A DNA stretch of 64,000 nt from Escherichia coli (GTDB lineage Bacteria > Pseudomonadota > Gammaproteobacteria > Enterobacterales > Enterobacteriaceae). The stretch lies in the NCBI RefSeq assembly GCF_003018255.1, contig NZ_CP027440.1. One strand, 5' to 3'. The notes beneath the pieces were generated by a model, which saw nothing but the letters and a program-made list of their open reading frames with translations, searched no databases and was not told where the DNA came from. Positions 6,955-35,118 of the stretch are shown in pieces; position 1 is the first letter of the stretch, and each line of letters begins with the position of its first letter. Both the position numbers and the translations under genes were made by a program.

Positions 6955-7120
6955 ACCTGTCGTGAGCGCACACCAATGCGAGTATCTCCCTTATAAGTCT
7001 GTGATTACGTCAATAGAGAGCTTTGTCACAATTATCTGCAAAGTCATACGCCGTTAATTGCTTTCTTTTTTGGCGTAAGCGTAAGATGCCTCATCTGGTT
7101 TAAACCAAAAGGATTAAACA

Positions 7121-10186: not shown

Positions 10187-10245
10187 TTAGTGGCCGGATG
10201 TGCTTAATCCGGCCAACGAAAACCGTATCAACCGAAGTTTCAATT

Positions 10246-11034: not shown

Positions 11035-11073
11035 GAATACTCCCTTGCCCCTCCTCGGTAGATGTTTACCATT

Positions 11074-11970: not shown

Positions 11971-12142
11971 ATTTGTCTTGTCCTGTTTAATTTTGTCGTC
12001 TTTGGTCAATTTAAATGACACAAATGATCAAATTAGTGATGCGTGTCGTGTTTTTGAACATAAATTACAAATATGCTCAAAAACAGACGAAAACGAATTT
12101 TCAATTGTCATTATTTTGTCAATGTCAGACAGGAGAGTATTC
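11971..12142. promoter_or_regulatory. Divergent intergenic control region between the kinase/regulator and reductase/aldolase operons, with TTGTCA direct repeats
   Basis: AT-rich 172-bp region; TTGTCA read at 12105-12110 and 12116-12121 (11-bp spacing), tgtcag at 12123-12128; RBS aggagag at 12131-12137. Confidence 0.4.
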
Positions 12143-13021: not shown

Positions 13022-13045
13022 TTTTATCTATTAACAGGAGTTTCT

Positions 13046-13933
13046 ATGTCATCCCACTTCACCCCATTTACGCTGAAAGATATCTCCCGCCCAGGTGGTG
13101 GATTCGCCATGTTAGCTGTCGATCAGCGTGAGGCCATGCGCCTGATGTTTGCGGCAGCAGGGCAGCCAAAACCCATCGCCGACAGTGTACTCACCGATTT
13201 TAAAGTTGCCGCGACCCGAATCCTTTCTCCTTATGCTTCTGCCGTTCTGGCGGATAAACAATTTTGTCTTGAACAAATAGTCGAGCAGGGCGCTGTGGCT
13301 AATTCTTGCGGCCTGATTGTCGCTGCCGATCTTTTTATCCCAGGTAATGGCATCCCGGTTGATAGCGTTGAAATAGATATGTCCGTCGACCCGCATAAAG
13401 CCCGTGAAATGGGGGCTAAGGCAATGAAATTACTTGTACTCTGGCGTGAAGATGAACCCGCAGAGGAACGTCTGGCAATGGTTGATAAATTTGTTCGTCG
13501 CTGCCGTAGTGCCGGGCTGGTTAGCATTATTGAACCTGTGGTGCGTCCACCTCGTCGCGGTTGGGACTTTGATCGTGAAAGCGCCATTGTTGCCGCCGCC
13601 GCAGAGCTTGGTGGAACAGAGGCTGATCTTTACAAAGCCGAGATGCCATTAGGGGGCAAAGGCGATGAAAAAACCTTACTTGCCGCCTGTCAGCAACTTA
13701 ACGATCAGATGAAGATGCCGTGGGTAATTCTTTCTTCTGGCGTTGATGCCGATATTTTTGGCCGTGCAGTAAGTATTGCCATGAAAGGTGGTGCGTCGGG
13801 CTTCCTGGCTGGACGAGCGGTATGGGCGTCGGTTGTTGGTGCACAAGATCCACAAACCATGCTGCGCGATGTCTCCGTTCCACGCTTGCAACGGCTGGCT
13901 GAAATTGTCGATGAAGGTATCGCGCAACGCTAA
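13046..13933 (+). CDS. Class I aldolase of the LacD/DeoC family (YihT / sulfofructose-phosphate aldolase-like), 295 aa
   Basis: ORF-track peptide [29 protein letters not shown]...; family assignment from recollection. Confidence 0.7.
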
Positions 13934-13965
13934 TCCCCTATGGATATCGATTCTGGAGAATAACA

Positions 13966-14976
13966 ATGGATAAAATTACCCAGGTTTTATTTTCAGATAT
14001 TGGGAAAGTCACCACTCAATATGTTGAAGTACCACACCAGCAACTTAAACCGCACGAAGTACGGATTGCGCCCGTGTTCTACGGGATATGCGGTTCGGAT
14101 CTGCATGTTCTGAAAGGCGGTCATCCGTTTGCCAAGCCGCCTGTCGTCCCCGGTCATGAAATTGCAGCGCGCGTTACGGAAGTGGGCAGCGACGTTAAAA
14201 ATGTACAGCCGGGCGATCATGTTGTGGTCGATCCCATCATGGCTTGCATGGAATGCCGAGCCTGCAAAGCAGGACGTTTTAATCTTTGTGAACCACCGCA
14301 GGTTGCTGGTTTTCGCGCACCGGGCTTTGCTCGCTCACAACACATTGTTCCTGCGCGTAATTGCCATGTCGCACCAGCCTCTTTACCGCTAAAAGTGTTG
14401 GCCTTTGCCGAACCGGCGGCTTGTGCTCGTCACTGCGTTAACCGAATGCCGAAAGCTTCTCTGGAAAGCGTACTGGTGATTGGTGCCGGAACGATAGGCT
14501 TATCCATCGTGCAGGCACTGCGCATTATGGGGGCAGGTAAGATTACCGTGATTGAACCTGACGCTGCCAAACGCGCGCTGGCGTTAAAGCTGGGCGCAGC
14601 AGAAGTTTGGGCACCAGGTGAGCTGGCCGCAGATGTGAGATTTACGGGGGCGATTGATGTCGTTGCAGCGCAGGCCACGCTTAACGATGCATGTACCCGT
14701 GTATATGCCGGAGGCACCGTCGTGTGCATGGGCGTACCAAGTGGGCCGCGTGAAATACCATTACCGATGATGCAACGTTTCGAGCGTGACTTGCTCAACT
14801 CTGGCATGTACATCCCTGAAGATTTCGATGCTGTTATCGAATGGCTGGCGGATGGGCGGTTTGATACCAGTGAACTGGTTACCGATTTATTTGCCATTGA
14901 GGATGCAGCGGCGGCATTCGAACGCGCGCAGCAAAATGACTCCATAAAGGTCATGCTGCAATTTGCGCCGGAATGA
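13966..14976 (+). CDS. Zn-dependent medium-chain alcohol/polyol dehydrogenase (sorbitol/galactitol-1-phosphate dehydrogenase-like), 336 aa
   Basis: Catalytic-zinc motif CGSDLH...GHE, structural-zinc cysteines CMECRACKAGRFNLC, NAD-binding VIGAGTIGL. Confidence 0.8.
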   Translation: MDKITQVLFSDIGKVTTQYVEVPHQQLKPHEVRIAPVFYGICGSDLHVLKGGHPFAKPPVVPGHEIAARVTEVGSDVKNVQPGDHVVVDPIMACMECRACKAGRFNLCEPPQVAGFRAPGFARSQHIVPARNCHVAPASLPLKVLAFAEPAACARHCVNRMPKASLESVLVIGAGTIGLSIVQALRIMGAGKITVIEPDAAKRALALKLGAAEVWAPGELAADVRFTGAIDVVAAQATLNDACTRVYAGGTVVCMGVPSGPREIPLPMMQRFERDLLNSGMYIPEDFDAVIEWLADGRFDTSELVTDLFAIEDAAAAFERAQQNDSIKVMLQFAPE

Positions 14977-15045
14977 TTTTCTAAATCTCTGTCTGGCGCT
15001 GCGTCACGTCAGCGCCACCCTACAACAATTAAAAAGGACACTGCG

Positions 15046-16479
15046 ATGAGTCAAATCACCAGTCCTGCAACTTATTCAATTAGTCGGCCACAGGACGTAA
15101 TTGATATTGTTAATAAGAACTCTGCAATCAACACCAGTATCGGCGTTATTTTTATTGCTTTGGGCGGCATATTGATTGATGCCTACCAGGTGGCGATGGT
15201 GGGGTTTGGTAATAAATACATTGCCGCTCAATTCGGCATTTCTCCGGGTCTTGCTGCGACCGTCAATGCGTCAGTATTAATCGCCGCGTTAATTGGCGGT
15301 TTATTAGCGAACCGAGTAATAAACCGCTTTGGGCAAAAGCGGGCATTTATTATTGGCATGGGGCTGTGCACCATCGGTGCTGCAGCGGTAGCTATTGCTC
15401 CCAGTATCTGGTGGGTGCTGGTGTGCCGCGTCATCATGGGCTTTGGTTTAGGCATCGACTTCCCTTTGGCAACTAATGCCGTGGCAGAGCTTCGTGGTTC
15501 AACGTCGAAGAAAACCGGAACGTCGGTCAACCTCTGGCAAATGGCCTGGTATGTTTCGACAACCGTTGTTTATTTGGTGCTTTTGCCGCTGCTTCTGTCG
15601 GGTATCGCTGAAGAACAATTGTGGCGTTACGGAATATTCATCGGAGCTATTTTTGCAGTCATCTTCATGATTTTGCGTTACTTCTTTATTGGTGAATCCG
15701 CAATGTGGGCCGCACGCGTTGGGCGTTACCAGGAAGCGTGCGACATTCTGGGAAAACGTTATGGTGTTCAGGCTCGCGTTGCGGCATCGGGTACAACAGA
15801 AGCGAAATTCTCGGAAAAAGCAGAGAATAAATACAGTGGTGGATATGGCATCTTATTTAATGATCGTTACCGCAAACGCACCATTCTTGGCTGTGTCGTG
15901 GCAACCATGCAGGCGTGGCAATATAACGCCGTAGGTGTTTATCTTCCTCTTACGTTGGCGGGAATAATAAGTGGCGGGCTTACTGGCGCGTTGACCGGTT
16001 CTGCCGTCGTGAATGCCCTTTGTGGGGTGACAGGTGGGATGATCGGCTCGTTTATTCTCCAACGACTGGGTACTCGCCGACAGTCGATGTATGGATTTGC
16101 TGTTGTGACCTTAGCATTGCTGTCGTTAGGCGCACTGGCAACGACTAATCCTTGGCTGTCTTTAGGGTTATTGGGATCAATTATTTTCTTCCATTCAGCG
16201 GGTCCTGGTGGGCTGGGCATGACCATTGCCACACTCTCTTATCCTCCCGCTATTCGCCCTACTGGGGTCGGATTTGCCCGCGCTATTATGCGCACAGGGG
16301 CAATTGCAGGACTCATTTTCTGGCCGATGCTGTGGGGTGCGTTGAAAACTGAAGCGTTTTACTGGTTGGCAATCGTGCCATTCCTGGGATTCCTAACCTG
16401 TGTATTGATTAATTGGGAACCACTGGGTGCAAATGTTGATGCTGAGGACGCAGAGGTTCTGGCTGAATTGAAGAAATAA
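15046..16479 (+). CDS. MFS transporter, 477 aa
   Basis: Multiple hydrophobic segments; MFS motif A (GGLLANRVINRFGQKRAF). Confidence 0.8.
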   Translation: MSQITSPATYSISRPQDVIDIVNKNSAINTSIGVIFIALGGILIDAYQVAMVGFGNKYIAAQFGISPGLAATVNASVLIAALIGGLLANRVINRFGQKRAFIIGMGLCTIGAAAVAIAPSIWWVLVCRVIMGFGLGIDFPLATNAVAELRGSTSKKTGTSVNLWQMAWYVSTTVVYLVLLPLLLSGIAEEQLWRYGIFIGAIFAVIFMILRYFFIGESAMWAARVGRYQEACDILGKRYGVQARVAASGTTEAKFSEKAENKYSGGYGILFNDRYRKRTILGCVVATMQAWQYNAVGVYLPLTLAGIISGGLTGALTGSAVVNALCGVTGGMIGSFILQRLGTRRQSMYGFAVVTLALLSLGALATTNPWLSLGLLGSIIFFHSAGPGGLGMTIATLSYPPAIRPTGVGFARAIMRTGAIAGLIFWPMLWGALKTEAFYWLAIVPFLGFLTCVLINWEPLGANVDAEDAEVLAELKK

Positions 16480-16577
16480 TTTAATGCGCATCGGCTTAAG
16501 CCGATGCGCATTAATTCAAACTGCCCACGTTTAGTGGTTCGTATCCCAGATTTCTCGCCTACCAGGAGAGGAAAATT

Positions 16578-17927
16578 ATGTCTGAAAAGTTACCCGCACC
16601 GCGTGAAGGGCTTTCCGGTAAAGCCATGAGACGTGTCGTTATGGGCAGTTTCGCAGGCGCGTTAATGGAATGGTATGACTTCTTTATTTTTGGCACGGCA
16701 GCAGGACTGGTATTTGCACCGCTGTTTTATCCAGACAGCGATCCTTTTATAGGTCTTATAGCTTCCTTTGCGACCTTTGGTGTCGGTTTTCTGACTCGTC
16801 CTTTAGGGGGCATCGTCTTTGGTCATTTTGGCGATAAAATCGGGCGAAAAATAACACTTATCTGGACGCTGGCTATTGTCGGTTGCTCCACATTTTTGAT
16901 TGGTTTTATTCCGACGTATCAGGAAATTGGCATTTGGGCACCGCTTGTATTAATGGTGCTGCGTTTGATTCAGGGCTTTGGTCTTGGTGGCGAGTACGGT
17001 GGAGCGGCATTGATGACCATAGAATCAGCGCCCGAATCCCGACGCGGATTTTTAGGTTCACTCCCGCAAACGGCTGCGTCTGTGGGTATTATGCTGGCAA
17101 CCGGTATTTTTGCTCTCTGTAACCATTTTCTTACTTCGGAGCAGTTTCTCTCCTGGGGATGGCGCATTCCGTTTTGGCTTTCTGCGGTGATGTTGATCGT
17201 TGGGCTGTTTATCCGCCTACATACCGAAGAAACGCTGGATTTTCAAAAGCAAAAAACGACGAATAATAAAGAAAAGTCCGTTCCTCCGTTGATTGAATTA
17301 TTCAAAAAACATCCACGAAATATTTTATTGGCACTGGGTGCGAGGCTGGCGGAAAGTGTCTCCTCTAATATTATTAATGCCTTTGGTATTGTCTATATTT
17401 CCAGCCAATTAGCATTGTCGCGAGATATTCCCCTGACGGGTATGTTGATTGCCTCGGCGATCGGTATTTTCAGTTGTCCATTGGTTGGATGGTTATCAGA
17501 TCGTATAGGTCAAAAAAGTCTGTATTTGTCGGGAGCAGGATTTTGTGTCCTGTTCGCGTTTCCTTTCTTCTTATTATTGGATAGCAAAAGTACGCTCATC
17601 ATCTGGTGCAGTATGATCCTCGGCTACAACTTAGGTCCGACGATGATGTTTGCCGTGCAGCCAACACTTTTCACCCGCATGTTCGGTACCAAAGTACGAT
17701 ATACCGGCCTTTCTTTTGCTTATCAATTTTCCGCGATTCTTGGCGGACTAAGCCCCCTTATCGCCTCAAGTTTGCTGGCGCTAGGGGGAGGAAAACCGTG
17801 GTATGTCGCTCTGTTTTTATTTGCTGTCTCAGTTCTTTCCTTTGTTTGCGTCTGGCTGATTGAGCCGACCGATGAACAAGAAACCGCTTCTTACCGCTAC
17901 ATCAGGGAACAATCTCATGAAAACTGA
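16578..17927 (+). CDS. MFS transporter of the metabolite:H+ symporter type (ProP/KgtP/ShiA-like), 449 aa
   Basis: Characteristic N-terminus EWYDFFIFG and GHFGDKIGRK loop motif. Confidence 0.75.
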   Translation: MSEKLPAPREGLSGKAMRRVVMGSFAGALMEWYDFFIFGTAAGLVFAPLFYPDSDPFIGLIASFATFGVGFLTRPLGGIVFGHFGDKIGRKITLIWTLAIVGCSTFLIGFIPTYQEIGIWAPLVLMVLRLIQGFGLGGEYGGAALMTIESAPESRRGFLGSLPQTAASVGIMLATGIFALCNHFLTSEQFLSWGWRIPFWLSAVMLIVGLFIRLHTEETLDFQKQKTTNNKEKSVPPLIELFKKHPRNILLALGARLAESVSSNIINAFGIVYISSQLALSRDIPLTGMLIASAIGIFSCPLVGWLSDRIGQKSLYLSGAGFCVLFAFPFFLLLDSKSTLIIWCSMILGYNLGPTMMFAVQPTLFTRMFGTKVRYTGLSFAYQFSAILGGLSPLIASSLLALGGGKPWYVALFLFAVSVLSFVCVWLIEPTDEQETASYRYIREQSHEN

Positions 17928-18804
17928 ACGAAAAAACGAGCATTACCTGGCGCTACAACAGGCGTTTGACGCGCCATGGCCTGGGCCTGTAGGAGAGTTA
18001 GTGATGCTGGAAAAAGGCAATATTCACCTGCAGATTTATCCGCATGATGGTGCCAGGATAACCTCGTTAAAGGCATTTGGTTCTGAAGTATTACGCCAAT
18101 GGCAGCCGCAGCGCAGAGCTTTTCAGTATGGCTGTTTCCCAATGGTGCCGTGGGCAGGGCGACTGGGGAATGCGACGCTGAATGCTGGTGGGCAATGTTA
18201 TTCTTTACCCGCCAATAAACCACCACATGCGTTGCATGGTATGGCTTGTTACTCAACGTGGGAAATCATCGACAAAACAGCAGATTCCCTGACTTTACGT
18301 ATGCCCCTGGCTTCACCGTGGCCCTGGCAAGGGGAAGTGATTCAGACTTTTTTGCTGGAGAACGATGCGCTGGTTTTGCAACTGGAAGTCCATTCATATG
18401 CCGATACATTCCCGGCCTCCGCAGGCTGGCATCCGTGGTTTGCGAAAAAGCTGACTCCGCAAAATACAGAATCGTTGCAGGTGCTTTTTGATGCGGACTG
18501 GCAAGAAGAAGCGGGTAGTGATGAACTGCCAACTGGAAATCGTATCTCTCCTCAAGTCGGTCCCTGGGATGACTGTTTTGGTTTTTATGACGGGGTGAAG
18601 GTTAAGTTACTGTGGCCTGGTAAACTCGCGATGACCATGACCTCTTCTGCAAACAGTCTGGTGGTATTTGATAAACAGCCCGATGCCACCTGTATTAACC
18701 CGCTGACTCAGGCACCTAACGCAATAAATCTAACGCCGGAATTTGTGACACCAGATAAGCCGCTGGTCATCGAAACTCGTTGGCAATTTACACCTGAATC
18801 TTAA
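17872..18804 (+). CDS. Aldose 1-epimerase (mutarotase)-like protein (YihR-like), about 310 aa; alternative ATG at 17917
   Basis: ORF 17860..18804 begins at a TTG; ATG codons at 17872 and 17917; start overlaps the end of the upstream transporter gene. Confidence 0.65.
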   Translation: MNKKPLLTATSGNNLMKTERKNEHYLALQQAFDAPWPGPVGELVMLEKGNIHLQIYPHDGARITSLKAFGSEVLRQWQPQRRAFQYGCFPMVPWAGRLGNATLNAGGQCYSLPANKPPHALHGMACYSTWEIIDKTADSLTLRMPLASPWPWQGEVIQTFLLENDALVLQLEVHSYADTFPASAGWHPWFAKKLTPQNTESLQVLFDADWQEEAGSDELPTGNRISPQVGPWDDCFGFYDGVKVKLLWPGKLAMTMTSSANSLVVFDKQPDATCINPLTQAPNAINLTPEFVTPDKPLVIETRWQFTPES

Positions 18805-18944
18805 CCATTCATCTATTGCGAAAAAGACAGTGAAATTACTCTGCTTTTTCGCAATCAGCATCACAAGATTACCCTTATTGCCACATAGCCAAACCCATCC
18901 TTTCCCGCTACAGTTAATTTCTTGTGGCGCGAAAGGAGGCAAAA

Positions 18945-21830: not shown

Positions 21831-21847
21831 GGGCGTTTTACTTGACT

Positions 21848-21876
21848 GAAAAGGTTTTCAATCTGAAAACCTTTTC
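21848..21876. terminator. Bidirectional hairpin terminator between yiiD and the esterase gene (gaaaaggttttcaatctgaaaaccttttc)
   Basis: Inverted repeat read directly between the two convergent stops. Confidence 0.6.
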
Positions 21877-21893
21877 TGGGCCCTGGTCCGGAG

Positions 21894-22877
21894 TTACCTT
21901 CCCGCTCTCCAGGCAACATCCCGTAGCGCCGATCGCGCAGCCTCGCTGATACCACCTAACTGAAAAAATCCGTGGATAACGCCAAGGTAGCGTTGGCAGG
22001 TGCATTGCACTCCTTGCCCTGTCATGCGGTGATACAACGCTTCACCTTCATCGCAAAGTGGGTCGTATTCAGCGGTAATGATATGTACAGGTGGCAAGCC
22101 ATTGAAATCATCGCGCCAAAGAGGGCTGGCTTCAGGATGCCTGCGTTCAATGCCTGGCAGGTACATCTCAAAGCCGCTCAGTAAAGTGTCGCGTGTGATG
22201 ATGTAATCGTGACCATTGCGTATGTAGCTTTCGAAATGCGCAGTCGCATCAAGCATGGGATAAATTAAGATGAGTTGTGCTGGTTGCCACTCGCCAGCAC
22301 GCTTCAATCGCAAAGCAGTTACCAGCGCCAGATGCCCTCCCGCACTGTCACCGGCAAGAGTTATTCGTTGTTTATCAACGCCGAGTCGTTCGGCGTGTTG
22401 CCGGACTAATTCTGCACCTCGTTGTGCATCATCATGGGCGGCGGGGAAAGTATGTTCCGGTGCCAGCCGATACTGGACGGCAATAATCCGACATTGCCCG
22501 TAATAGGCTAACTGGCGCAGCTGGTTGTCGTGAGTTGCGAACCCGCCGCTAACAAAACAGCCACCGTAGTAATAAATTATCGTCGGGAGTAATGTCGGGG
22601 CATTCAGCGGTGACACTATTCGTAAGGTCATCCCTTCAAGTTCGATAGTCTGAATATCTACCCGCGTTTCTGTCTCACCCGCAAGGACAGCGCTGGCGAT
22701 ATAGCCCTCTCTGCGCTGCGTAATACTTTGTTGGCGCGATGAGGGGCGACCCGCAGCGATAAACTCTTCGACTAACTCTGCAATTCCTTTTTCCAGTGCC
22801 ATAGTAGAACTCATTTTGCTGTATGAATGTACAGTTTTATACACCCGTTTTTGCTGGATGGATACAGGGAAATTCAC
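21894..22877 (-). CDS. Alpha/beta-hydrolase, hormone-sensitive-lipase (Aes-like) family carboxylesterase, up to 327 aa
   Basis: GDSAGG nucleophile-elbow motif; ORF starts at a GTG (22877), first in-frame ATG at about 22814. Confidence 0.75.
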   Translation of the reverse strand: MNFPVSIQQKRVYKTVHSYSKMSSTMALEKGIAELVEEFIAAGRPSSRQQSITQRREGYIASAVLAGETETRVDIQTIELEGMTLRIVSPLNAPTLLPTIIYYYGGCFVSGGFATHDNQLRQLAYYGQCRIIAVQYRLAPEHTFPAAHDDAQRGAELVRQHAERLGVDKQRITLAGDSAGGHLALVTALRLKRAGEWQPAQLILIYPMLDATAHFESYIRNGHDYIITRDTLLSGFEMYLPGIERRHPEASPLWRDDFNGLPPVHIITAEYDPLCDEGEALYHRMTGQGVQCTCQRYLGVIHGFFQLGGISEAARSALRDVAWRAGR

Positions 22878-22976
22878 GGGCGTGAAAAATCTGGAAAGCG
22901 CCTCGCAAATGTAAAGACAAACCCGGCAGAGACGTGGTTTTGCTGGAGCACTATCAGTAAGCTAGTGGTTTCAAGG

Positions 22977-22993
22977 GTACGTCAATGACGTAC
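22977..22993. promoter_or_regulatory. Perfect 17-bp palindrome (gtacgtcaatgacgtac) upstream of the toxin-antitoxin pair; candidate operator
   Basis: Read directly; lies between the divergent esterase gene and the toxin gene, upstream of a TATAAT at 23024-23029. Confidence 0.4.
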
Positions 22994-23030
22994 AAAAAGG
23001 ATTGTTACTCTAAGCCAATGGCGTATAATT

Positions 23031-23342
23031 ATGCTCTTCATCGAAACGGAAATTTTTACTGAAGATGTTCAAAAACTGCTGACCGACGATGAATTCAGTC
23101 GTTTTCAGTTTTTCCTGGCCTTGAATCCTGACTATGGTGAGGTAATACCTGAAACTGGTGGGTTAAGAAAGGTTCGATGGGTGTCAGGAGGAAAGGGGAA
23201 ACGTGCTGGTGTCAGGGTTATTTACTTTCATCAGGTTAAACATTATGAGATCAGATTACTGCTTATTTATCGTAAGGGTATTAAAGATGATCTGTCTCCC
23301 CAGGAAAAAGCAATGCTCCGGTTGTTAAATACGAGGTGGTAA
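23031..23342 (+). CDS. RelE/ParE-superfamily (HigB-like) type II toxin, 103 aa
   Basis: Small basic protein (MLFIETEIFTEDVQKLL...) immediately followed, with no gap, by an XRE-family HTH gene. Confidence 0.6.
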   Translation: MLFIETEIFTEDVQKLLTDDEFSRFQFFLALNPDYGEVIPETGGLRKVRWVSGGKGKRAGVRVIYFHQVKHYEIRLLLIYRKGIKDDLSPQEKAMLRLLNTRW

Positions 23343-23633
23343 ATGGATAAGGCACTTTTTGAGCGGTTGACTCACAGCATGGCCCAGATGAATGAAATTA
23401 TTGAAGGAACGCGACAGCCTTCGCGGACTTTTGAAGTTGATGCTATGAAAATCAAAGAAATACGCCGCGCTTCAGGGTTGTCACAATCTAAATTTGCCGA
23501 TCTTATTTCTGTAAGCGTAGACACGTTGCGTAACTGGGAGCAGGGGCGACGTTCACCGACCGGGCCTGCAAAGGCTTTGCTGCGAGCGATTGCCAATGAT
23601 CCGCAACATGTGCTGCAAGCACTTAACCGTTAG
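23343..23633 (+). CDS. XRE-family HTH antitoxin (HigA-like), 96 aa
   Basis: HTH (IRRASGLSQSKFADLISVSVDTLRNWEQG); start codon abuts the toxin stop (tggTAAATGg). Confidence 0.6.
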   Translation: MDKALFERLTHSMAQMNEIIEGTRQPSRTFEVDAMKIKEIRRASGLSQSKFADLISVSVDTLRNWEQGRRSPTGPAKALLRAIANDPQHVLQALNR

Positions 23634-24237
23634 AGGCATGGTTATGCCATACAGAAAGCACCAGCATTCAGAACTCCTGTGAAAGCGGCGTAGTGCCACC
23701 TGCTCAGGAGTTTTGCTATGACCCGTAATCGTGCTGACCGTTGCCACCCTATGATGCGATTAAAAAAACTCATCGTCGCGCCGATGATTGACGTCAATGC
23801 TATCGGATGATACCGGGGGTGTTCCGGAAGGAATTCCTTGTTTCCCGAACTGTTACCAACAAAATTATAACGATAAGCAAGTAAAGACCGGTTGGTGGCA
23901 GTACTGACCGGTCTGTGATGGATGATTAATTTCACCTTAAATCCTGGTGCTGTTAGGATGCTGACATTTTTCGGCTACACCATTCAGATTATGCAAATAA
24001 AGATCCAATCAAAAGATAAATATCCCTGAATATAATATATTTATAGCACCCATATCTCATCCTGGGCGATAACCCAACCATTTTTGATTAACAAATGAAA
24101 CAACTGCAACGTTCTTATTATTTCTGGAAAACGTCTCGCAAAAACAAAACAGCATGCAAAAATCCGCTTTTTTTAAATGATTTTTCGGCGTAATTTTCGC
24201 ACATACATTAATGAGTAATATATGTAAGGTATTGGTA

Positions 24238-24456: not shown

Positions 24457-24670
24457 CAAAAAATTTATTATTCTTGAATATAAAAACCAGATGCCCTTAT
24501 TCTGGTATTAATACAAAGCTGTTTTACTTGAACTTATAATAACTGCAACTGTTACATCATATCTGGAAAACGCCTCGCGAAATACGAGAGATTTTGCGGG
24601 AATAGCAGGTGTCGTCATACCCTATGAACTGTAATCCGGGCGACCAGCGCCACCCGGAAAACGTCAGAGA

Positions 24671-27143: not shown

Positions 27144-30100
27144 TTACACCTTTTCCACATTCACAAGGAAGGACTTAAACTCCGGCGTCTGCGTGTTCGC
27201 ATCACCGACGAATGGCGTCAACGTATTGGCAATAAAGCCTTTTTTCGCAACACCTTCATAGCCCCAGTGAATCGGAATACCGATGGTATCGATATCTTTG
27301 CCGTTTGCTTTCAGCGTGCGAATACGTTTGGTCACTACCGCTTTGGCTTTGATATAGCCACGGTTGGAGGAGACTTTCACAGTATCGCCCTGGGCAATGC
27401 CAAGTTTATTCGCCAGCGACTCCCCGATTTCCACAAACTGCTCTGGTTGCAAAATCGCATTCAACAGCGCGTGTTTGGTCCAGTAGTGGAAGTGCTCGGT
27501 CAGACGATAGGTGGTTCCGACATACGGGAACTTATCGGCTTTACCCAATGCTTCGGCGTCGTCTTTAAAGATACGCGCAGCCGGGTTCGAGATAACGTTT
27601 GGATGCAGCGGGTTAGTTCCCAGCGGCGTTTCAAACGGCTCGTAGTGTTCCGGGAACGGACCTTCCGCCATCTTATCGAGGGCAAACAGACGTCCCATGC
27701 CTTCCTGCTGCATGATAAACGGCCCTACGCCGCTGCCCGGAGGCGCTGCGCTGTAGTCCGGAATATCCCAGCCGGTCCACTTAGTGCCGTCCCATTTCAG
27801 CAACTGACGCTTCGGATCCCATGGGTTACCCTGCGGATCTGCGGAGGCGCGGTTATACAGAATGCGGCGGTTAAGCGGCCATGCCCATGCCCAGCCCAGC
27901 GTGTTACCGAGGCCAGACGGATCGGCGTTATCACGACGCGCCATCTGGTTACCTTCTGGCGTCCAGCTACCGGCGAAAATCCAGCAGCCACAGGAGGTCG
28001 TACCGTCATCGCGCAGTTGGGCGAACGAGCTAAGTTGTTGGCCTTTCTTGACGATAACCGCACCGGTTGCCGGATCGGTAATATCGGCCAGCGCCTTACC
28101 GTTGCTCTCCATCGCCACTTCTTCCGACTTCGGCTCATGCGGAATGGCGTAGTTCCAGGTCATATTCAGCACCTGGTCCGGGTTTGCGCCACCCTGTTCG
28201 GCATACATCTTGCGCAAGCGCAGGAAGATACCGGAGAGGATCTCGCCATCAGTCAGCGCAATCCCTGGGGCGTCCGCACCTTTCCAGTGCCACTGTAACC
28301 AGCGACCGGAGTTAACGATTGAACCGTTCTCTTCTGCGAAGCAAGTCGATGGCAGACGGAACACTTCGGTCTGGATCTTCGACGAGTCAACTTCGTTCAG
28401 CTCACCGTGGTTCTGCCAGAAGTTAGAGGTTTCAGTGTTCAGCGGGTCGATGGTGACGAGGAACTTCAGTTTCGACAGACAACCGATCACTTTGTTTTTG
28501 TTCGGGAATGAGGCAACAGGGTTAAAGCCCTGGCAGATATAGCCATTGACCTTGCCTTCTTTCATCATCTCGAAGTATTGCAGGACGTCGTAGCCTTTAT
28601 CCCACTTCGGCAACCAGTCAAAGCCCCAGCTATTTTCCGCCGTCGCTTTATCACCAAAGAATGCCTTCATCATTGAGACGAAGAATTTCGGGTAGTTGCC
28701 CCAGTAGTTGACCTGGCCTTCCAGCAGTGGTTTTGGCGTGTTGGCAGCGAGGTAAGTTTGCAGATCGGTCTGCTTCTCGCTTGGCAACGTCATGTAACCT
28801 GGCAGACTCTGCGACAGCAGCCCCAGGTCGGTCAGCCCCTGAATATTGGAGTGACCGCGCAGGGCGTTAACGCCGCCGCCAGCCATCCCCATATTGCCGA
28901 GCAGCAACTGGATCATCGCCATCGTACGAATGTTTTGCGCACCAATGGAGTGTTGCGTCCAGCCGAGCGCGTAAAGGAACGAGGCAGTTTTATCGTGAGC
29001 ACTGGTCTCAGCGATGTATTCGCAGACTTTCAGGAATGCGTCTTTTGGCGTACCACAGATGTTTTCAACCACATCTGGCGTGTAGCGGGAAACGTGCTGT
29101 TTCAGCAAGTTCCACACGCAACGTGGATGTTGCAGGGTAGTATCGCGTTTGGCGAAGCCGTTTTCGTCCAGTTCGTAAGTCCAGGAGGATTTATCGTACT
29201 TACGTTTTTCCGCGTCATAGCCGGTGAACAGGCCATCTTCAAAGCCGTAATCCTCACGCACGATCAGGCTGGCGTTGGTATAGGCTTCGGTGTATTCGCG
29301 GTTGAATTTTTCATTGTTCAGCAGGTACAGCAATACGCCTGACAGGAAAGCAATGTCAGTACCGGAACGAATAGGGGCATAGTAGTCAGCTACCGCCGCC
29401 GTACGCGTAAAGCGAGGATCGATCACAATCAGCTTCGCGCCATTGTGAATTTTGGCTTCCATCGCCCAGCGGAACCCGACCGGGTGAGCTTCAGCGGCGT
29501 TACCGCCCATCACCACGACGAGGTTGGCGTTCTTGATGTCGACCCAGTGGTTGGTCATCGCACCGCGACCAAATGTTGGAGCAAGACTTGCTACCGTTGG
29601 TCCGTGTCAGACACGCGCCTGGTTGTCGACCGCGAGCATACCCAGCGCGCGGGAGAATTTTTGCGTTAAATAGCCGGTTTCGTTACTCGACGCGGAAGCA
29701 CACAGCATCCCGGTGGAGAGCCAGCGGTTAACGGTCACGCCTTCGGCGTTTTGCGCAATGTAGTTAGCATCGCGGTCTTCTTTCATCAGTTTGGCGATGC
29801 GATCAAACGCCTCTTCCCAACTGATTTGCTGCCATTTATCAGAACCTGGCGCACGGTATTCCGGAAACTTCAGACGGCTTTCGGAGTGGATGAAATCCAC
29901 CAGGCCAGCGCCTTTCGGACAAAGTGCACCGCGGTTGACCGGGTGATCCGGGTCACCTTCGATATGGAAGATAGATGCTTTGGCGTTTTTTGCTCCGTCA
30001 CCGAGGCTGTACATCAACAGCCCACAGCCTACGGAACAATAGGTGCAGGTATTACGGGTTTCGCGGGTGCGCAGCAGTTTATACTGCCGGGTTTCCGCGA

Positions 30101-30194
30101 GTGCTACGCTGGGTGCAAAACCCAGTGCCGCTGCCGTGGTGCCTGCCATACCGCCAGCGCAGATCTTAAAGAACTGCCTTCTGCTGACCTGCAT
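27144..30194 (-). CDS. fdoG: Formate dehydrogenase-O catalytic subunit, selenoprotein with in-frame UGA (Sec) at 29607-29609; about 1016 aa
   Basis: ORF track splits the gene into 29607..30194 (Tat signal MQVSRRQFFKICAGG...) and 27144..29558; both are in the same frame and the sequence after the UGA reads H-G-P-T-V-A-S. Confidence 0.92.
29560..29606 (-). promoter_or_regulatory. Putative SECIS element directing selenocysteine insertion at the fdoG UGA
   Basis: mRNA immediately 3' of the UGA (CACGGACCAACGGUAGCAAGUCUUGCUCC...) in the position of bacterial SECIS hairpins; structure not computed. Confidence 0.5.
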
Positions 30195-30387
30195 GGATTG
30201 CTCCTTGTTTCGACATTGTCACGTCCCATTTACATTCGCTTGCTGCGTGTGCAGGGAGTGGGAGTTATTTTTCTTTGCGGAAGGGGCCGCAAAGGTCCAG
30301 AATTGGCTCAATTTCCCTCCATCCAGGAAGGGTTTGTAACAGAATACCATAATGTTGGTGTGTGTGTTCTTATCTGGTTAAGAGAAA

Positions 30388-31221
30388 GTGAAAAAAACAC
30401 AGCAAAAAGAAATCGAAAATGTGACAAATATCACAGGTGTTCGTCAAATTGAGTTATGGCGGCATGATGATTTACAACACCCACGGTTAGATGAGGTGGC
30501 GGAAGAAGTTCCCGTTGCGCTGGTCTACAACGGTATTTCGCATGTGGTGATGATGGCGTCGCCCAAAGACCTTGAGTACTTTGCGCTCGGTTTTTCGCTT
30601 TCCGAGGGGATAATCGAAAGTCCGCGCGATATCTTCGGCATGGATGTCGTTCCTTCCTGTAATGGTCTTGAAGTTCAAATTGAGCTTTCCAGCCGCCGCT
30701 TTATGGGGTTGAAGGAGCGTCGCCGGGCACTGGCGGGACGTACGGGATGTGGCGTGTGCGGCGTGGAGCAACTTAATGACATCGGAAAACCGGTGCAGCC
30801 GCTACCGTTCACCCAGACGTTTGATCTCAACAAACTGGATGATGCATTACGTCATCTCAATGATTTTCAGCCAGTGGGGCAACTGACCGGTTGTACTCAC
30901 GCCGCCGCCTGGATGTTGCCATCTGGCGAACTGGTCGGCGGGCATGAAGACGTGGGTCGCCATGTGGCGCTGGACAAACTGTTAGGCCGCCGGTCACAAG
31001 AAGGGGAAAGCTGGCAGCAAGGTGCGGTACTGGTTTCCAGCCGTGCCAGTTATGAAATGGTGCAAAAGTCGGCGATGTGCGGCGTAGAGATTTTGTTTGC
31101 GGTGTCTGCCGCGACCACACTTGCTGTAGAAGTGGCTGAACGCTGTAATTTGACGCTGGTGGGCTTTTGTAAACCGGGTCGGGCAACGGTTTATACCCAT
31201 CCGCAGCGTTTGAGCAATTAA
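30388..31221 (+). CDS. fdhD: Formate dehydrogenase sulfurtransferase FdhD, 277 aa
   Basis: ORF-track peptide [28 protein letters not shown]... Confidence 0.93.
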
Positions 31222-31228
31222 TTAAAAT

Positions 31229-31270
31229 AAGTCCTGCGATATATATTAAATTGCAGGACTTATTCATTTC
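31229..31270 (+). terminator. Hairpin terminator after fdhD (aagtcctgc ... gcaggactt)
   Basis: 9-bp inverted repeat read directly after the fdhD stop, followed by a T-rich tract. Confidence 0.55.
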
Positions 31271-31933
31271 GTGAATTTTATTATTTTATTTATAAACAAA
31301 ACGCGTGTAGTGGCGTTAACGCCTGCGTTGCAACCTATTGATGGCGTGGCGGTGAGTTATATTGATGCTGCCGTAGCGTTGGGTAATACCATTAACGAAA
31401 TGGATAAATATTACATCCAGGAAAATTATAAAGACGATGCGTTTGCGAAAGGGAAAACGCTGCACCAGACATTCTTAAAAAATCTGGAAGCCTTTGAACC
31501 TGTAGCAGAATCTTATCATGCGGCGATTCAGGAAATTAATGACAAGCGCCAGCTTACGGAATTGAAAAATATTGAAGAAAGAGAAGGGAAAACATTCCAC
31601 TACTACTCTCTGGCAGTCATGATTTCAGCGAAACAAATTAATAACCTGATATCGCAAGATAAGTTTGATGCAGAAGCGGCAATGAAGAAAGTGTCTGAAC
31701 TGGAAACGCTGGTGGCGCAGGTCAAAGAAGCGGATAAAAGCGGCATGAATTTCTCGTTTATTAATTCGGCAGGCCAGTATCAACTCGAGGCTAAAAAATA
31801 CGTTCGCCGCATCAGAGATAAAGTCCCGTACTCTGACTGGGATAAAGAGCAACTTCAGGACGCAAACTCAAGCTGGATGGCCGAAGACTCATTTCCCGAG
31901 AGCATTATGCGAGTACAACGAAATGGTCGATGA
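31271..31933 (+). CDS. YiiG-position ORF, up to 220 aa from a GTG start; no signal peptide; possibly a 5'-truncated remnant
   Basis: Begins directly after the fdhD terminator; K-12 YiiG as recalled is a longer lipoprotein; first ATG is well inside the frame. Confidence 0.4.
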   Translation: MNFIILFINKTRVVALTPALQPIDGVAVSYIDAAVALGNTINEMDKYYIQENYKDDAFAKGKTLHQTFLKNLEAFEPVAESYHAAIQEINDKRQLTELKNIEEREGKTFHYYSLAVMISAKQINNLISQDKFDAEAAMKKVSELETLVAQVKEADKSGMNFSFINSAGQYQLEAKKYVRRIRDKVPYSDWDKEQLQDANSSWMAEDSFPESIMRVQRNGR

Positions 31934-32353
31934 AATATTTCAGTCAATTGTAATCGCGGAGCGGGTTTGTGATGAGCGCGGATATGTCACGAAGTCGTGA
32001 CAATATAAAGCAGAGTGAAGGATAAATTTTGTGAATAAAGTATCATTATTTAATGATTTTGTGAATGTTTAAATGTCTCAGATAATTTGTTTAAGCGTTA
32101 TTTATATTTGTGGCTTATGAGTCAGCGTGAATCATATCTAATATTTTTTACGATTTTTAGTTAAAAACGGCACTATTGTTATATTCCTCACGTTCCAGGA
32201 AATCAGCGGATTTACTCATATTATGCAGCGGGATACTATCCATCGGCCTGCTGAAGTTGGATTAAAAATTCGAAAGTGCACACCTTATATTTCTCTATAT
32301 ACGTATTCCTTTTGGAAAGCGTAGGGTCTCTTTTATTTCAGGGAACGTAAATA

Positions 32354-33748
32354 ATGAAAAAATCGACATTATCTTTAGCCATCGGTTTATTATTGGCATG
32401 TAGTACCGGAATGGCAAAAACACAGCATTTAACGCTGGAACAACGCATGGCATTGCTGGAAGAACGCCTGGAAGCGGCAGAAATGCGGGCAGCAAAAGCA
32501 GAGAGCCAGGTTAAACAGCTGCAGACACAACAAGCCGCTGAGATCCGCGAAATTAAGGCTGCCCAGGGCAATACGCCGGTAAATGGACAGGCAACGGCGG
32601 AATCTGCAAAGAAAAATTCCACCTCACCTAATCTTTTGCTCTCAGGTTATGGCGATTTAAAAATCTACGGCGACGTAGAATTTAATATGGATGCGGAAAG
32701 TAATCATGGCCTTCTGGCAATGACCAACGCTGATGTGAATAGCGATCCCACTAATGAACAGTGGAATCTCAATGGTCGTATTCTGTTAGGTTTTGATGGT
32801 ATGCGAAAACTGGATAATGGTTATTTCGCCGGGTTCTCCGCACAACCGCTGGGGGACATGCACGGTTCAGTAAATATCGATGATGCGGTATTCTTCTTTG
32901 GCAAAGAAAACGACTGGAAGGTCAAAGTAGGTCGTTTTGAAGCCTACGATATGTTCCCGCTGAATCAGGATACCTTTGTTGAACATTCCGGTAATACTGC
33001 GAACGATCTTTATGACGATGGCAGCGGTTATATCTATATGATGAAAGAGGGCCGCGGGCGCTCTAACGCTGGCGGTAATTTCCTCGTCAGCAAACAACTT
33101 GATAACTGGTATTTTGAATTAAACACGTTACTTGAAGACGGAACATCTTTATATAATGACGGTAATTATCATGGACGCGATATGGAGCAGCAGAAAAATG
33201 TTGCTTATCTGCGTCCAGTAATTGCCTGGTCGCCGACGGAAGAATTCACCGTTTCCGCAGCGATGGAAGCGAACGTAGTAAATAATGCTTATGGTTATAC
33301 CGATAGCAAGGGTAATTTTGTCGATCAGTCCGATCGTACCGGCTATGGTATGAGCATGACCTGGAATGGCCTGAAAACGGATCCGGAAAATGGTGTCGTG
33401 GTTAATCTTAATACCGCCTATTTAGATGCTAATAATGAGAAAGATTTCACTGCCGGGATTAACGCGCTGTGGAAACGTTTCGAGCTCGGTTATATCTACG
33501 CGCACAATAAGATTGATGAATTCAGCGGTGTAGTTTGTGATAACGACTGCTGGATTGATGATGAAGGGACGTACACCATTCACACCATTCATGCGTCTTA
33601 TCAGTTCGCTAATGTGATGGATATGGAGAACTTTAATATTTACCTCGGGACGTATTACTCCATTCTGGATAGCGACGGTGATAAAAAACACGGTGATGAT
33701 ACTGATGACCGTTACGGGGCACGCGTTCGCTTTAAATACTTCTTCTGA
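32354..33748 (+). CDS. Outer-membrane beta-barrel porin with N-terminal coiled-coil extension (carbohydrate-porin-like), 464 aa
   Basis: Signal peptide MKKSTLSLAIGLLLACSTGMA, heptad-rich segment LEQRMALLEERLEAAEMRAAKAESQVKQLQ, alternating beta-strand pattern, C-terminal ...RFKYFF. Confidence 0.7.
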   Translation: MKKSTLSLAIGLLLACSTGMAKTQHLTLEQRMALLEERLEAAEMRAAKAESQVKQLQTQQAAEIREIKAAQGNTPVNGQATAESAKKNSTSPNLLLSGYGDLKIYGDVEFNMDAESNHGLLAMTNADVNSDPTNEQWNLNGRILLGFDGMRKLDNGYFAGFSAQPLGDMHGSVNIDDAVFFFGKENDWKVKVGRFEAYDMFPLNQDTFVEHSGNTANDLYDDGSGYIYMMKEGRGRSNAGGNFLVSKQLDNWYFELNTLLEDGTSLYNDGNYHGRDMEQQKNVAYLRPVIAWSPTEEFTVSAAMEANVVNNAYGYTDSKGNFVDQSDRTGYGMSMTWNGLKTDPENGVVVNLNTAYLDANNEKDFTAGINALWKRFELGYIYAHNKIDEFSGVVCDNDCWIDDEGTYTIHTIHASYQFANVMDMENFNIYLGTYYSILDSDGDKKHGDDTDDRYGARVRFKYFF

Positions 33749-33756
33749 TGAAGTCG

Positions 33757-33781
33757 CGGTGCTGGATATTTTCCGGCACCG
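33757..33781. terminator. Bidirectional hairpin between the porin gene and rhaM
   Basis: Imperfect inverted repeat cggtgctgg...ccggcaccg between convergent stops. Confidence 0.45.
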
Positions 33782-33788
33782 CAACTCA

Positions 33789-34103
33789 TTAAGGCAGGTA
33801 AAACACTTCTTGCAGCTCGCTACTGACTGGGCTGTTATCCGGGTTAGTTGGCATAACGTCGGTCATATATTTCCACCAACGTTGGCAAACATCAGTACTG
33901 GCTACCGCATTCCACCGTTCTTCAGATTCAATCTCTACCGTGGCAAACAGCAGATTACGCGCTTTGTCGAGGTAAATGGCGTAGTTATGCGCACCGTGAG
34001 ATTTCAACACTGCTTCCAGTTCCGGCCAGATTGGATTATGACGACGCTGATACTCTTCGTGGGCGTCGGGGTTAACCTGCATGACAAAGGCTTTGCGGAT
34101 CAT
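33789..34103 (-). CDS. rhaM: L-rhamnose mutarotase, 104 aa
   Basis: ORF-track peptide [30 protein letters not shown]...; ATG read at 34101-34103. Confidence 0.93.
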
Positions 34104-34112
34104 GTTTGCTCC

Positions 34113-34937
34113 TTACAGCGCCAGCGCACTGGCGAGTGGTGTAACGCCGAAACGCTGGCCGAGCGCTATCAGCTCTTCACGACTGATGGTCTGTTTCATG
34201 CCGCCCATCGAATAAACCTTCACTAATACTTGTGCTGATTTTTCTGCGGTGTCGATTAAACCGAATGTTTCATCCAGTGTCGGACCGCTGCCGAAGACGC
34301 CGTGGAAGGGCCACAACACCAGCGAATGTTTTTGCATTTCCTGTGCGGTCGCCTGGCCGATTTCGTCGGTGCCGGGCACCATCCACGGCAAAATGCCGAC
34401 GCCATCCGGGAACACTACCAGACATTCGGTGCTGCCTTCCCACAGTTGGCGAGTGAAGACCGCGGTGTCGTTTTCCAGTACGTAGGTAAGGGCGATCAGG
34501 TTGGTGGCATGGCAGTGCATGATCACCCGATCTTTACCGTTGGTGGCTTTAATGCGCTCGCAGTGGGAGAGAAAGTGAGCCGGAAGTTCGGAAGTGGGGA
34601 CGGCTTTGTTGGTTAACCCCCAAAGAATGTGGTAGCCCGCGCCGTCGCTGTCGACTTTTACGATGCCTAAGTTAGCCGCAGGATCAAGCTGGACGTTACG
34701 GAAGAATTTGCCTGAGCCGGTGACAATAAACGGTGTATTTGCCAGTAAAGGCATGGGCTGGCTGAGCGGGATATAGCGCGGTTGTTGGTGAAAATTGTCG
34801 TGATATGGTGCGATATCGGCGTCATCCAGGCGCAGCGTCAGGTTGCCGCCGTTGCGCTCGTCCCAGCCTTTCAGCCAGGCGTCGGTGGTGGCTTTAATCA
34901 TTCCCTGGACAAACCAGGACTGAGTAATGTTTTGCAT
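34113..34937 (-). CDS. rhaD: Rhamnulose-1-phosphate aldolase, 274 aa
   Basis: ORF 34113..35030 with start at internal ATG ([32 protein letters not shown]...). Confidence 0.93.
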
Positions 34938-34969
34938 GTTCGGTGTTCCTGTTAATTGGACGTCCGTGC

Positions 34970-35118
34970 CTGTTGCCGGATATACGATCTGTAGGCCGGA
35001 TAAGGCACTCGTGCCGCATCCGGCAATCAATGCCTGATGCGACGCTGTCGCGTCTTATCAGGCCTACAACTATTGCCGACCCGTAGGCCGGATAAGGCAC
35101 TTGTGCCGCATCCGGCAG
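34970..35118. repeat. REP/BIME cluster in the rhaD-rhaA intergenic region
   Basis: Repeated gtaggccggataaggc...gccgcatccggca and gcctgatgcgacgc...cttatcaggcctac units. Confidence 0.75.

Follow-up and report, generated by a model that had tools for sequence, protein, structure and literature searches.

A RafY-family porin gene and a yiiG pseudogene remnant between fdhD and rhaM of Escherichia coli: a common allele that very probably arose by loss

The analysed sequence, hereafter called the window, is a 64,000-nt stretch of the E. coli contig NZ_CP027440.1, in which the interval between fdhD and rhaM contains a 220-codon open reading frame (ORF) with a GTG start, an AT-rich spacer and a porin gene (Table 1), while the equivalent interval of K-12 carries yiiG and the frvRXBA genes. 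The gene on the left flank is named fdhD in the annotation of the near-identical strain 2017.09.02CC. A strong terminator comes directly after it, whose fold energy was calculated by RNA folding over positions 31222–31275. On the right flank, homology to K-12 picks up again exactly at the stop codon of rhaM, and the hairpin separating the porin gene from the convergent rhaM probably acts as a bidirectional terminator. Inspection of ORFs and repeats revealed no integrase, IS element, tRNA, border repeat or direct repeat at the borders of the locus. The original prediction, made from the same letters, had described a gene content unlike that of K-12, namely a GTG-initiated ORF of 220 codons right after the fdhD terminator and devoid of a signal peptide or lipobox, about 420 bp of AT-rich non-coding DNA and a plus-strand porin gene, and all of these features were confirmed by the sequence and by comparison with MG1655.

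Table 1 Features of the fdhD–rhaM region in window coordinates
Feature	Position	Strand	Description and evidence
fdhD, intact left flank	30388..31221	+	ORF; protein 100% identical to EDL933 FdhD (tblastn)
fdhD intrinsic terminator hairpin	31226..31264	+	Inverted repeat; 15-bp stem, -19.9 kcal/mol
220-codon ORF, GTG start	31271..31933	+	13 codons of former fdhD-yiiG intergenic DNA, then yiiG remnant, out-of-frame end
Deletion 1 junction, 478 bp vs EDL933	31310..31317		Direct repeat GTGGCGTT (8 bp) kept as a single copy
yiiG pseudogene remnant	31310..31933	+	YiiG codons 139 to ~345; 95-97% nucleotide identity to EDL933/K-12 yiiG
+1 C insertion (CCC vs CC in intact yiiG)	31895..31897	+	Nucleotide alignment, three-frame translation
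Deletion 2 junction, 4,792 bp vs EDL933	31929..31934		BLAST breakpoints, junction flanks
AT-rich spacer	31934..32353		Native frvA-porin divergent intergenic region minus 38 bp; alignment to EDL933 intergenic region
Conserved CRP-like 16-mer TGTTATATTCCTCACG	32177..32192	+	8/10 consensus positions, lacP1-like; centre ~62 nt before the predicted start of transcription
Predicted porin promoter	32211..32239	+	-35 TTTACT (32211-32216), 17-nt spacer, -10 TACTAT (32234-32239)
Leader hairpin ACGUAUUCC-UUUU-GGAAAGCGU	32301..32322	+	RNAfold z = -2.6; U-rich run, then Shine-Dalgarno AGGGA (32340-32344)
RafY-family outer-membrane porin gene, intact	32354..33748	+	464 aa; chromosomal paralogue 'rafY2'; PF16966
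Hairpin GCGGTGCTGG-ATATTTT-CCGGCACCGC	33756..33782		Between convergent porin and rhaM genes; read from the sequence
rhaM, right flank	33789..34103	-	Stop codon begins at 33789

The porin matches the complete Pfam model PF16966 (residues 104–464 over model positions 1–372 of 372, E = 3.7e-154) and consists of a signal peptide (approximately residues 1–21), a helical N-terminal extension (28–70) and a β-barrel (101–464) ending in phenylalanine. The N-terminus, MKKSTLSLAIGLLLACSTGMA/K, has the properties of a Sec signal peptide, and the C-terminus, ...RFKYFF, provides the terminal aromatic residue. The AlphaFold model, which is of moderate confidence (pLDDT 67.5, pTM 0.62), has some 16 strands; the best Foldseek matches to it are 16-stranded porins (Omp32, OprB, VhChiP and OmpF-type, E about 1e-11). 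It is most likely that the protein would form a 16-stranded trimeric pore, which in the absence of glucose would let di- and oligosaccharides through the outer membrane. A search of NCBIfam found a family neither for the porin nor for the yiiG remnant.

RafY is a diffusion pore letting in raffinose, sucrose and maltose. This glycoporin is the porin of the raffinose plasmid pRSD2 and is listed in TCDB as 1.B.15 (Ulmke et al. 1997; Andersen et al. 1998, both via PMC4827864 and PMC4809568). The window porin resembles RafY in its full-length match to PF16966 (Porin_8), and it has the same length of 464 aa and 78.4% amino-acid identity compared to the plasmid porin encoded after rafR-rafA-rafB-rafD, both proteins possessing a signal peptide, a helical N-terminal extension, a C-terminal phenylalanine and a predicted 16-strand barrel. 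Unlike rafY of pRSD2, the window gene is chromosomal, monocistronic, unlinked to rafRABD and convergent with rhaM. With the yiiG remnant on one side and rhaM on the other, it is not a member of a raf operon; genes for α-galactosidase, permease and invertase were found only around the 78%-identical plasmid paralogue. The gene called rafY2, or 'carbohydrate porin', of E. coli O157:H7, sited between frvA and rhaM (PMC4809568; WP_000749920.1), is an ortholog at the equivalent site with 97.8% nucleotide identity and the same upstream region, although O157:H7 keeps intact yiiG and frvRXBA upstream of it and the window does not. The sugar porins LamB, ScrY and BglH (PF02264, the 18-stranded maltoporin family) are likewise outer-membrane carbohydrate channels, and the N-terminal coiled-coil extension of the ScrY type is weakly echoed in the window porin (Sugarporin_N, E = 0.06). 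Membership in this family was nevertheless rejected, as the porin has no match to PF02264, phmmer found no match for it among all PDB sequences, and the structural matches are 16-stranded porins instead of maltoporins. A porin–rhaM–rhaD segment was also seen captured on an IncK plasmid beside MFS and GH32 genes, which may hint at a link with the scavenging of plant-derived sugars.

All the differences in gene content between the window and O157:H7 EDL933 are deletions. BLAST resolved three collinear blocks (31000–31317, 31310–31933 and 31933–34200), and the breakpoints were taken from it, since the global MAFFT alignment of the two sequences put the large gaps in the wrong places. Deletion 1 takes about 60 bp 5′ of yiiG and codons 1–138, including those for the signal peptide and lipobox. 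Deletion 2, with a microhomology of at most 1–4 bp, takes the final 19 nt of yiiG, the whole of frvR, frvX, frvB and frvA, and some 18 nt lying 5′ of frvA. The third deletion, of 38 bp at approximately position 32029 in the spacer, is specific to the window allele. The lengths balance (478 + 4792 + 38 − 1 = 5307 = 6439 − 1132), and the breakpoints, which the original prediction had suggested defining by alignment to K-12, are fixed by the resumption of K-12 homology at rhaM and by the deletions relative to EDL933. Both large deletion junctions are identical in strains 2017.09.02CC, 536, Nissle 1917 and U15A. Strain 536 and the window do not differ in their yiiG remnants (100% identity), and both have the +1 C insertion. 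This insertion frameshifts the remnant and is absent in Nissle and U15A, which instead bear a 135-bp deletion between AAGGGAAAAC repeats; the Nissle porin is, in addition, 21 nt shorter.

The complete set of fdhD, yiiG, frvRXBA, porin and rhaM was found in EDL933, in ST131 and in Escherichia sp. MOD1-EC7003 from a cryptic lineage. In a set of 5,426 complete E. coli genomes, the K-12-like allele was counted 2,827 times (52%), the full form 1,382 times and the window-like allele, to which strains 536 and Nissle 1917 belong, 1,166 times (about 21%); the porin gene, whose pan-genome distribution had been proposed as a check, is present in 2,556 genomes (47%). The porin gene adjoins rhaM in at least 10 enterobacterial genera as well as in the cryptic Escherichia lineage, the two genes being convergent in Kluyvera, Citrobacter, Klebsiella, Raoultella, Enterobacter, Pseudocitrobacter, Trabulsiella, Superficieibacter and others, and the order fdhD-frvRXBA-...-porin-rhaM occurs in C. 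braakii, C. amalonaticus S646 and Trabulsiella. Since many genera share both the porin–rhaM synteny and an AT-rich upstream region, this DNA is considered ancestral.

It is quite reasonable to suggest, with a probability of roughly 0.9, that the window locus is one of three common fdhD–rhaM alleles and that it arose via loss rather than gain, a polarity that rests on parsimony and synteny and not on a dated phylogeny. The ancestral Escherichia order would be fdhD and yiiG in the forward orientation, frvR-frvX-frvB-frvA in the reverse orientation, an AT-rich divergent control region, and a rafY-like porin gene convergent with rhaM. A deletion between two copies of GTGGCGTT would have eliminated the ribosome-binding site, start codon and 5′ codons of yiiG, another one the whole frvRXBA operon together with the 3′ tip of yiiG, and the 38-bp deletion would have shortened the intergenic region, with the +1 C arising later and frameshifting the yiiG remnant. 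K-12, in which 111 bp without an EDL933 counterpart stand in place of the 1.7 kb of the porin, is a porin-deletion derivative that lost the gene by a separate, independent change, and it was due to this loss that the difference from K-12 resembled an insertion or replacement. K-12, being itself deleted for an ancestral porin, is therefore no neutral reference at this locus. The variant is ordinary pan-genome variation that has already been annotated. A literature search found no account of an fdhD–rhaM polymorphism, nor of H-NS occupancy there. It is also a clean textbook example of how short-repeat-mediated deletions followed by pseudogene decay shape a pan-genome.

The opposite polarity, with the porin-less K-12 state being ancestral and some lineages having regained the porin from a different Escherichia or a Citrobacter lineage through homologous recombination, would agree with the K-12-like allele being the commonest, with the 111 bp present in K-12 at the porin's place, and with the synonymous divergence of the E. 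coli porin, which reaches a dS of 0.22–0.25 against about 0.09 at yiiG. It is, however, very unlikely, as the site, orientation and upstream motif of the porin are alike in many genera and in the cryptic Escherichia, the closest orthologs outside Escherichia share 83–85% amino-acid identity and so are not recent donors, and the porin alleles within E. coli are 93–99.9% identical at the nucleotide level. Under the derivation by loss, the high synonymous divergence (dS up to 0.25) suggests that recombination moved porin alleles across E. coli lineages. With dN/dS values of 0.03–0.06 and an intact gene in all the strains compared, the porin is under strong purifying selection and is selectively maintained.

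The remains of yiiG present a different picture. The GTG of the 220-codon ORF lies 6 nt past the fdhD terminator, no Shine-Dalgarno sequence is visible 5′ of this codon at position 31271, and no signal peptide or lipobox was found in the first 13 residues. Residues 14–212 correspond to residues 139–337 of YiiG with 96% amino-acid identity, the intact K-12 protein being 351 aa long; a full-length alignment to YiiG, which the original prediction had named as evidence against itself, was not observed. The native stop codon of yiiG is deleted and the C-terminus of the remnant is frameshifted. Compared to the YiiG (DUF3829) lipoproteins, the product would have no lipobox cysteine, no signal peptide and no frame of about 351 aa. 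PGAP treats the corresponding stretch of strains 2017.09.02CC and 536 as a pseudogene of a 'YiiG family protein', which it marks as frameshifted, incomplete and lacking the N-terminus. The ORF is a chance reading frame through a dead yiiG fragment, and since it starts in formerly intergenic DNA right after the fdhD terminator and crosses dead yiiG, most likely no protein is made from it. That it codes for a functional, newly truncated cytoplasmic YiiG derivative using the GTG start is extremely unlikely: the frame does stay open over 220 codons, the kept part is highly identical to YiiG, and the dN/dS value against K-12 is 0.11, but this value comes from just 16 substitutions, and the dN/dS of the remnant, with only 5–13 nonsynonymous differences available, is uninformative on neutral versus constrained evolution. 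The location of the GTG past a strong terminator without a Shine-Dalgarno sequence, the altered C-terminus, the PGAP assignment and the additional 135-bp deletion in sister strains with equal junctions, a pattern of a decaying pseudogene, all argue against such a function.

The original prediction of a locus replacement stands as far as the difference in content and the truncation of yiiG are concerned, but not as a replacement, because the supposedly exchanged parts coexist in EDL933, ST131 and MOD1-EC7003. The spacer (420 bp) has a GC content of 34.3% against the window mean of 50.8% and is the most AT-rich stretch of its length in the window, with only 0.16% of the 420-bp windows in the 64 kb being equally AT-rich. 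This was taken as a mark of foreign DNA, but it is a native intergenic region, and the 300 nt 5′ of the porin have 27–38% GC in every ortholog. The porin itself, at 44.7% GC, is GC-poor, and its orthologs are likewise 4–7 points below their own loci, so the low GC is intrinsic to the gene and does not indicate a foreign composition. Scarcely tenable, then, is the view that a horizontally acquired, H-NS-silenced cassette of spacer and porin took the place of yiiG-frvRXBA, for although the AT-rich spacer, the GC-poor porin, its absence from K-12 and the paralogue rafY on a plasmid speak in its favor, the window differs from the full form by clean deletions, the synteny and the AT-rich upstream region span genera, mobility genes are absent, and the plasmid rafY, with only about 86% nucleotide and 78% amino-acid identity, is not the source. 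The features of a genomic islet, namely a patchy, non-syntenic absence in relatives, mobility signatures and a donor-like composition, were likewise not observed. Binding of H-NS to the spacer is possible, its AT-richness being the prerequisite seen in the sequence, and it would not imply a horizontal origin.

After the loss of frvRXBA the spacer would still keep the porin's own promoter, with a CRP-like site at about −62, the −35 and −10 hexamers and a hairpin-bearing leader of approximately 110 nt; transcription is predicted to start at about position 32246. The CRP-like site reads TGTTA-N6-TCACG against the consensus TGTGA-N6-TCACA, and its predicted position would be close to the −61.5 typical of class I sites at sigma-70 promoters. 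A conserved TTTAC follows 18 nt 3′ of the site, and the conserved −10 another 17 nt downstream. TTTAC and TAnTnT-type hexamers are found at a constant distance from the 16-mer across genera, the spacing of all three elements being fixed in 30 of the 34 syntenic orthologous loci. In a simple promoter and terminator scan, sites were no more frequent than in shuffled sequences and the predicted porin promoter scored below the threshold. The two mismatches to the CRP consensus are themselves conserved, and another regulator may possibly be involved. A hairpin with different stem sequences occupies the matching leader position in about 20 of 28 orthologs (mean z −1.35), the support for it consisting of per-sequence folds, as RNAalifold found no consensus structure in the MAFFT alignment of 24 leaders. 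An Rfam scan of positions 30000–35000 gave no matches within 31222–33788; a sub-threshold match to the FdoG1 thermometer lies outside this interval.

It may be speculated, though the idea is doubtful, that cAMP-CRP, or else a dedicated regulator recognising TGTTAYNTNSCTCACG, activates the porin gene and the leader hairpin gates it, and that the porin and the frv PTS are alternative ways of scavenging plant sugars such as fructosides and rhamnose-containing oligosaccharides, which, if true, would explain the three states found in E. coli (porin with frv, porin only and frv only). The RafY-type porin is the only part of the locus with some forward value, being strongly conserved, uncharacterised and preceded by a phylogenetically footprinted promoter, and its absence from laboratory K-12 may explain why it has gone unstudied.

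The fdhD-rhaM interval lies on the E. coli chromosome and is arranged as listed in the table. Its layout had been described accurately, with the GTG ORF, the AT-rich 420-bp spacer and the plus-strand porin gene all present, and the gene content does differ from that of K-12, since MG1655 carries yiiG (351 aa) and frvRXBA here, as stated in the original prediction, and no porin. The spacer is unusual in composition, its AT-richness being matched by only 0.16% of the 420-bp windows in the 64 kb scanned. While the difference from K-12 is real, the mechanism and origin proposed for it, a replacement by horizontally acquired DNA, did not hold, the locus being explained by deletions in ancestral DNA.

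Features of the fdhD-rhaM locus and the lesions relative to E. coli O157:H7 EDL933
Feature	Position	Strand	Remarks
fdoG			in-frame UGA; ahead of fdhD
fdhD	30388-31221		
Terminator hairpin	31226-31264		strong, -19.9 kcal/mol; 3' of fdhD
220-codon ORF	31271-31933		GTG start
Deletion 1	31310-31317 (surviving copy)		478 bp, between two copies of GTGGCGTT
Inserted C (+1)	31895-31897		frameshifts the yiiG remnant
Deletion 2	near 31933		4,792 bp
Non-coding spacer	31934-32353		420 bp, 34.3% GC
Deletion 3	~32029		38 bp, inside the intergenic region; allele-specific
Conserved 16-mer	32177-32192		TGTTAYNTNSCTCACG
-35 hexamer	32211-32216		TTTAC; 18 nt downstream of TGTTAYNTNSCTCACG
-10 hexamer	32234-32239		TAnTnT-type; 17-nt spacer after -35
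464-codon ORF (porin)	32354-33748	plus	
rhaM-rhaD-rhaA-rhaB operon		minus	3' of the porin ORF

EDL933 possesses all the parts, namely fdhD, yiiG, frvR, frvX, frvB, frvA, a 477-bp intergenic region, the porin gene and rhaM, and alignment of the window to it gives three collinear blocks. Deletion 1 took out yiiG codons 1-138 together with the translation start, signal peptide and lipobox; deletion 2 took out the last 19 nt of yiiG, the entire frvRXBA and ~18 nt on the upstream side of frvA. The interval corresponds to that of EDL933 less the three deletions and plus the inserted C, with sizes that close exactly (478 + 4792 + 38 - 1 = 5307 = 6439 - 1132), so the spacer is the native frvA-porin divergent intergenic region rather than a linker of foreign origin. 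Relative to EDL933, K-12 is missing 1,723 bp (part of the same intergenic region, the porin gene and 39 bp after it), in place of which it carries 111 bp with the rhaM terminator.

In a set of 5,426 complete E. coli genomes, the K-12-type frvA-rhaM junction was found in 2,827, frvA contiguous with the porin in 1,382 and the window-type arrangement in 1,166, the three together accounting for 99%; the porin itself is present in 2,556. Phylogroup B2 holds both the full form (ST131) and the window-type form (536, Nissle). The locus is a common deletion allele already annotated in RefSeq.

The 220-codon ORF is not a full-length YiiG: it matches only YiiG residues 139-337 (96% identity), opens with 13 codons of what was once intergenic DNA and ends out of frame. 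It has no Shine-Dalgarno sequence, starts 6 nt past the terminator and is considered untranslated; such remnants are already annotated as pseudogenes in RefSeq. Both large deletion junctions are identical in 2017.09.02CC, 536, Nissle 1917 and U15A. The inserted C is common to the window and 536 and absent from Nissle and U15A, both of which have lost 135 bp between two AAGGGAAAAC repeats, still found in the window at 31449 and 31584. Differing later lesions on shared junctions are what would be expected if a pseudogene had decayed following a single inactivation in an ancestor; dN/dS of the remnant was uninformative, with too few substitutions. In Citrobacter, Enterobacter, Trabulsiella and other outgroup loci yiiG is absent from the fdhD-frvR interval, and it appears to be Escherichia-specific at this site.

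When one genome per species was scanned, porin orthologues with 60-85% amino-acid identity were found across the Enterobacteriaceae, convergent with rhaM in Kluyvera, Citrobacter, Klebsiella, Raoultella, Enterobacter, Pseudocitrobacter, Trabulsiella, Superficieibacter and others. In C. braakii, C. amalonaticus S646, Kluyvera genomosp. 1 and Trabulsiella the porin has frvRXBA upstream and rhaM downstream, with fdhD ahead of frvR in C. braakii and Trabulsiella, where the compared flank reaches far enough, and the entire E. coli arrangement is seen in MOD1-EC7003, a cryptic Escherichia lineage. The porin gene has 44.7% GC, its orthologues are similarly low relative to their own loci, and the 300 nt upstream have 27-38% GC in all of them. 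ORF, Rfam and repeat scans found no mobility genes, tRNAs or border repeats at the locus. Horizontal acquisition is therefore not supported, given the synteny conserved across genera, the low GC intrinsic to the gene and the lack of mobility signatures; the porin and spacer DNA is, by this comparison, ancestral. In Citrobacter, frvA and the porin are separated by azlCD-like genes and an XRE/cupin regulator.

The porin alleles of E. coli have diverged strongly at synonymous sites (dS up to 0.25); values against ST131 and Nissle, 0.22-0.25, are more than twice the ~0.09 of neighboring yiiG, suggesting either that the allelic lineages are old or that the gene has recombined. With alleles reshuffled by recombination, as this high dS implies, the number of loss events cannot be counted. 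In the divergent Escherichia genome CP089930.1 ('E. coli' E69, 1-7564; ~90% nucleotide identity), porin-rhaM is preceded by yibF-selA-selB-yiaY-aldB in the place of fdhD, yiiG and frv; these other upstream genes indicate a chromosomal rearrangement that broke within the region upstream of the porin.

The 464-codon ORF is assigned to the RafY family, matching the whole Pfam model PF16966 'Porin-like glycoporin RafY' (E 3.7e-154), and has neither an NCBIfam equivalog nor a related sequence among PDB entries. With the porin of E. coli raffinose plasmids it shares 78.4% identity; that porin differs in context, lying 3' of regulator, alpha-galactosidase, MFS permease and GH32 invertase genes. For the chromosomal copy of O157:H7 the name 'rafY2' is used in the literature (PMC4809568). 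An AlphaFold model of moderate confidence built from 39 homologues (pLDDT 67.5) comprises an N-terminal helix (28-70) and a barrel of ~16 strands, in agreement with the TCDB description of RafY (PMC4827864), and among solved structures it best matches 16-stranded porins (Omp32, OprB, chitoporin VhChiP, OmpF-type), not maltoporin. The gene is intact, and dN/dS values of 0.03-0.06 across E. coli alleles point to strong purifying selection. The residual interest of the locus lies in this uncharacterised porin, kept in many enterobacterial genera yet lost from K-12, and in its footprinted control region.

The upstream region is poorly conserved apart from a footprint made up of TGTTAYNTNSCTCACG and the two hexamers, whose spacing is kept in 30 of 34 syntenic orthologues from at least eight genera. 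The 16-mer agrees with the CRP consensus at 8/10 positions and is similar to the lacP1 site. Its centre would fall near -62, a geometry consistent with a class I CRP-activated promoter that would drive the intact, selectively maintained porin gene; the two conserved departures of the 16-mer from the consensus leave room for another regulator. Base composition alone makes H-NS binding to the spacer plausible. The leader of ~110 nt contains a hairpin (32301-32322), a U-rich run and a Shine-Dalgarno sequence (32301-32344 overall). A hairpin occurs at the equivalent place in about 20 of 28 orthologues with different stem sequences (mean z -1.35), and it is only a lead because RNAalifold found no consensus structure in the leader alignment.

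A chromosomal fragment of 2,749 bp, 98.2% identical to window 32193-34941, is present on IncI-gamma/K conjugative plasmids (CP057400.1 pRHB27-C22_5, 14840-17588; also NZ_OQ534115 to NZ_OQ534119). It extends from 161 bp ahead of the porin gene across rhaM and rhaD and has been joined to the downstream side of genes for an MFS transporter and a GH32 glycosidase; at the protein level its porin is 100% identical to that of the window.

The window differs from K-12 elsewhere as well. An 8.6-kb cluster (10235-18877) coding for a DeoR regulator, a sugar kinase, a sulfolactaldehyde reductase, an aldolase, a Zn-dependent dehydrogenase, two MFS transporters and an epimerase-like protein stands in place of the 11.9-kb ompL-yihOPQRSTUV-csqR sulfoquinovose cluster. 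An additional ~2 kb downstream of fabY (21831-23840) includes a hormone-sensitive-lipase/esterase-like ORF (21894-22877, minus strand), ~600 bp around yiiF are missing at 24583-24607, and the glnA 3'UTR/GlnZ sRNA region (3239-3286) has 48 bp versus 160 bp in K-12. Upstream of fdoG there is a sub-threshold Rfam match to the FdoG-1 5'UTR thermometer (30165-30363, minus strand; 32 bits vs gathering 50, E 3e-5). The rhaD-rhaA intergenic repeat (34985-35117) varies in copy number, spanning ~180 bp versus 450 bp in K-12, with at least eight tandem copies of a ~92-bp repeat in Escherichia sp. MOD1-EC7003 (10720-11577 of the compared locus).
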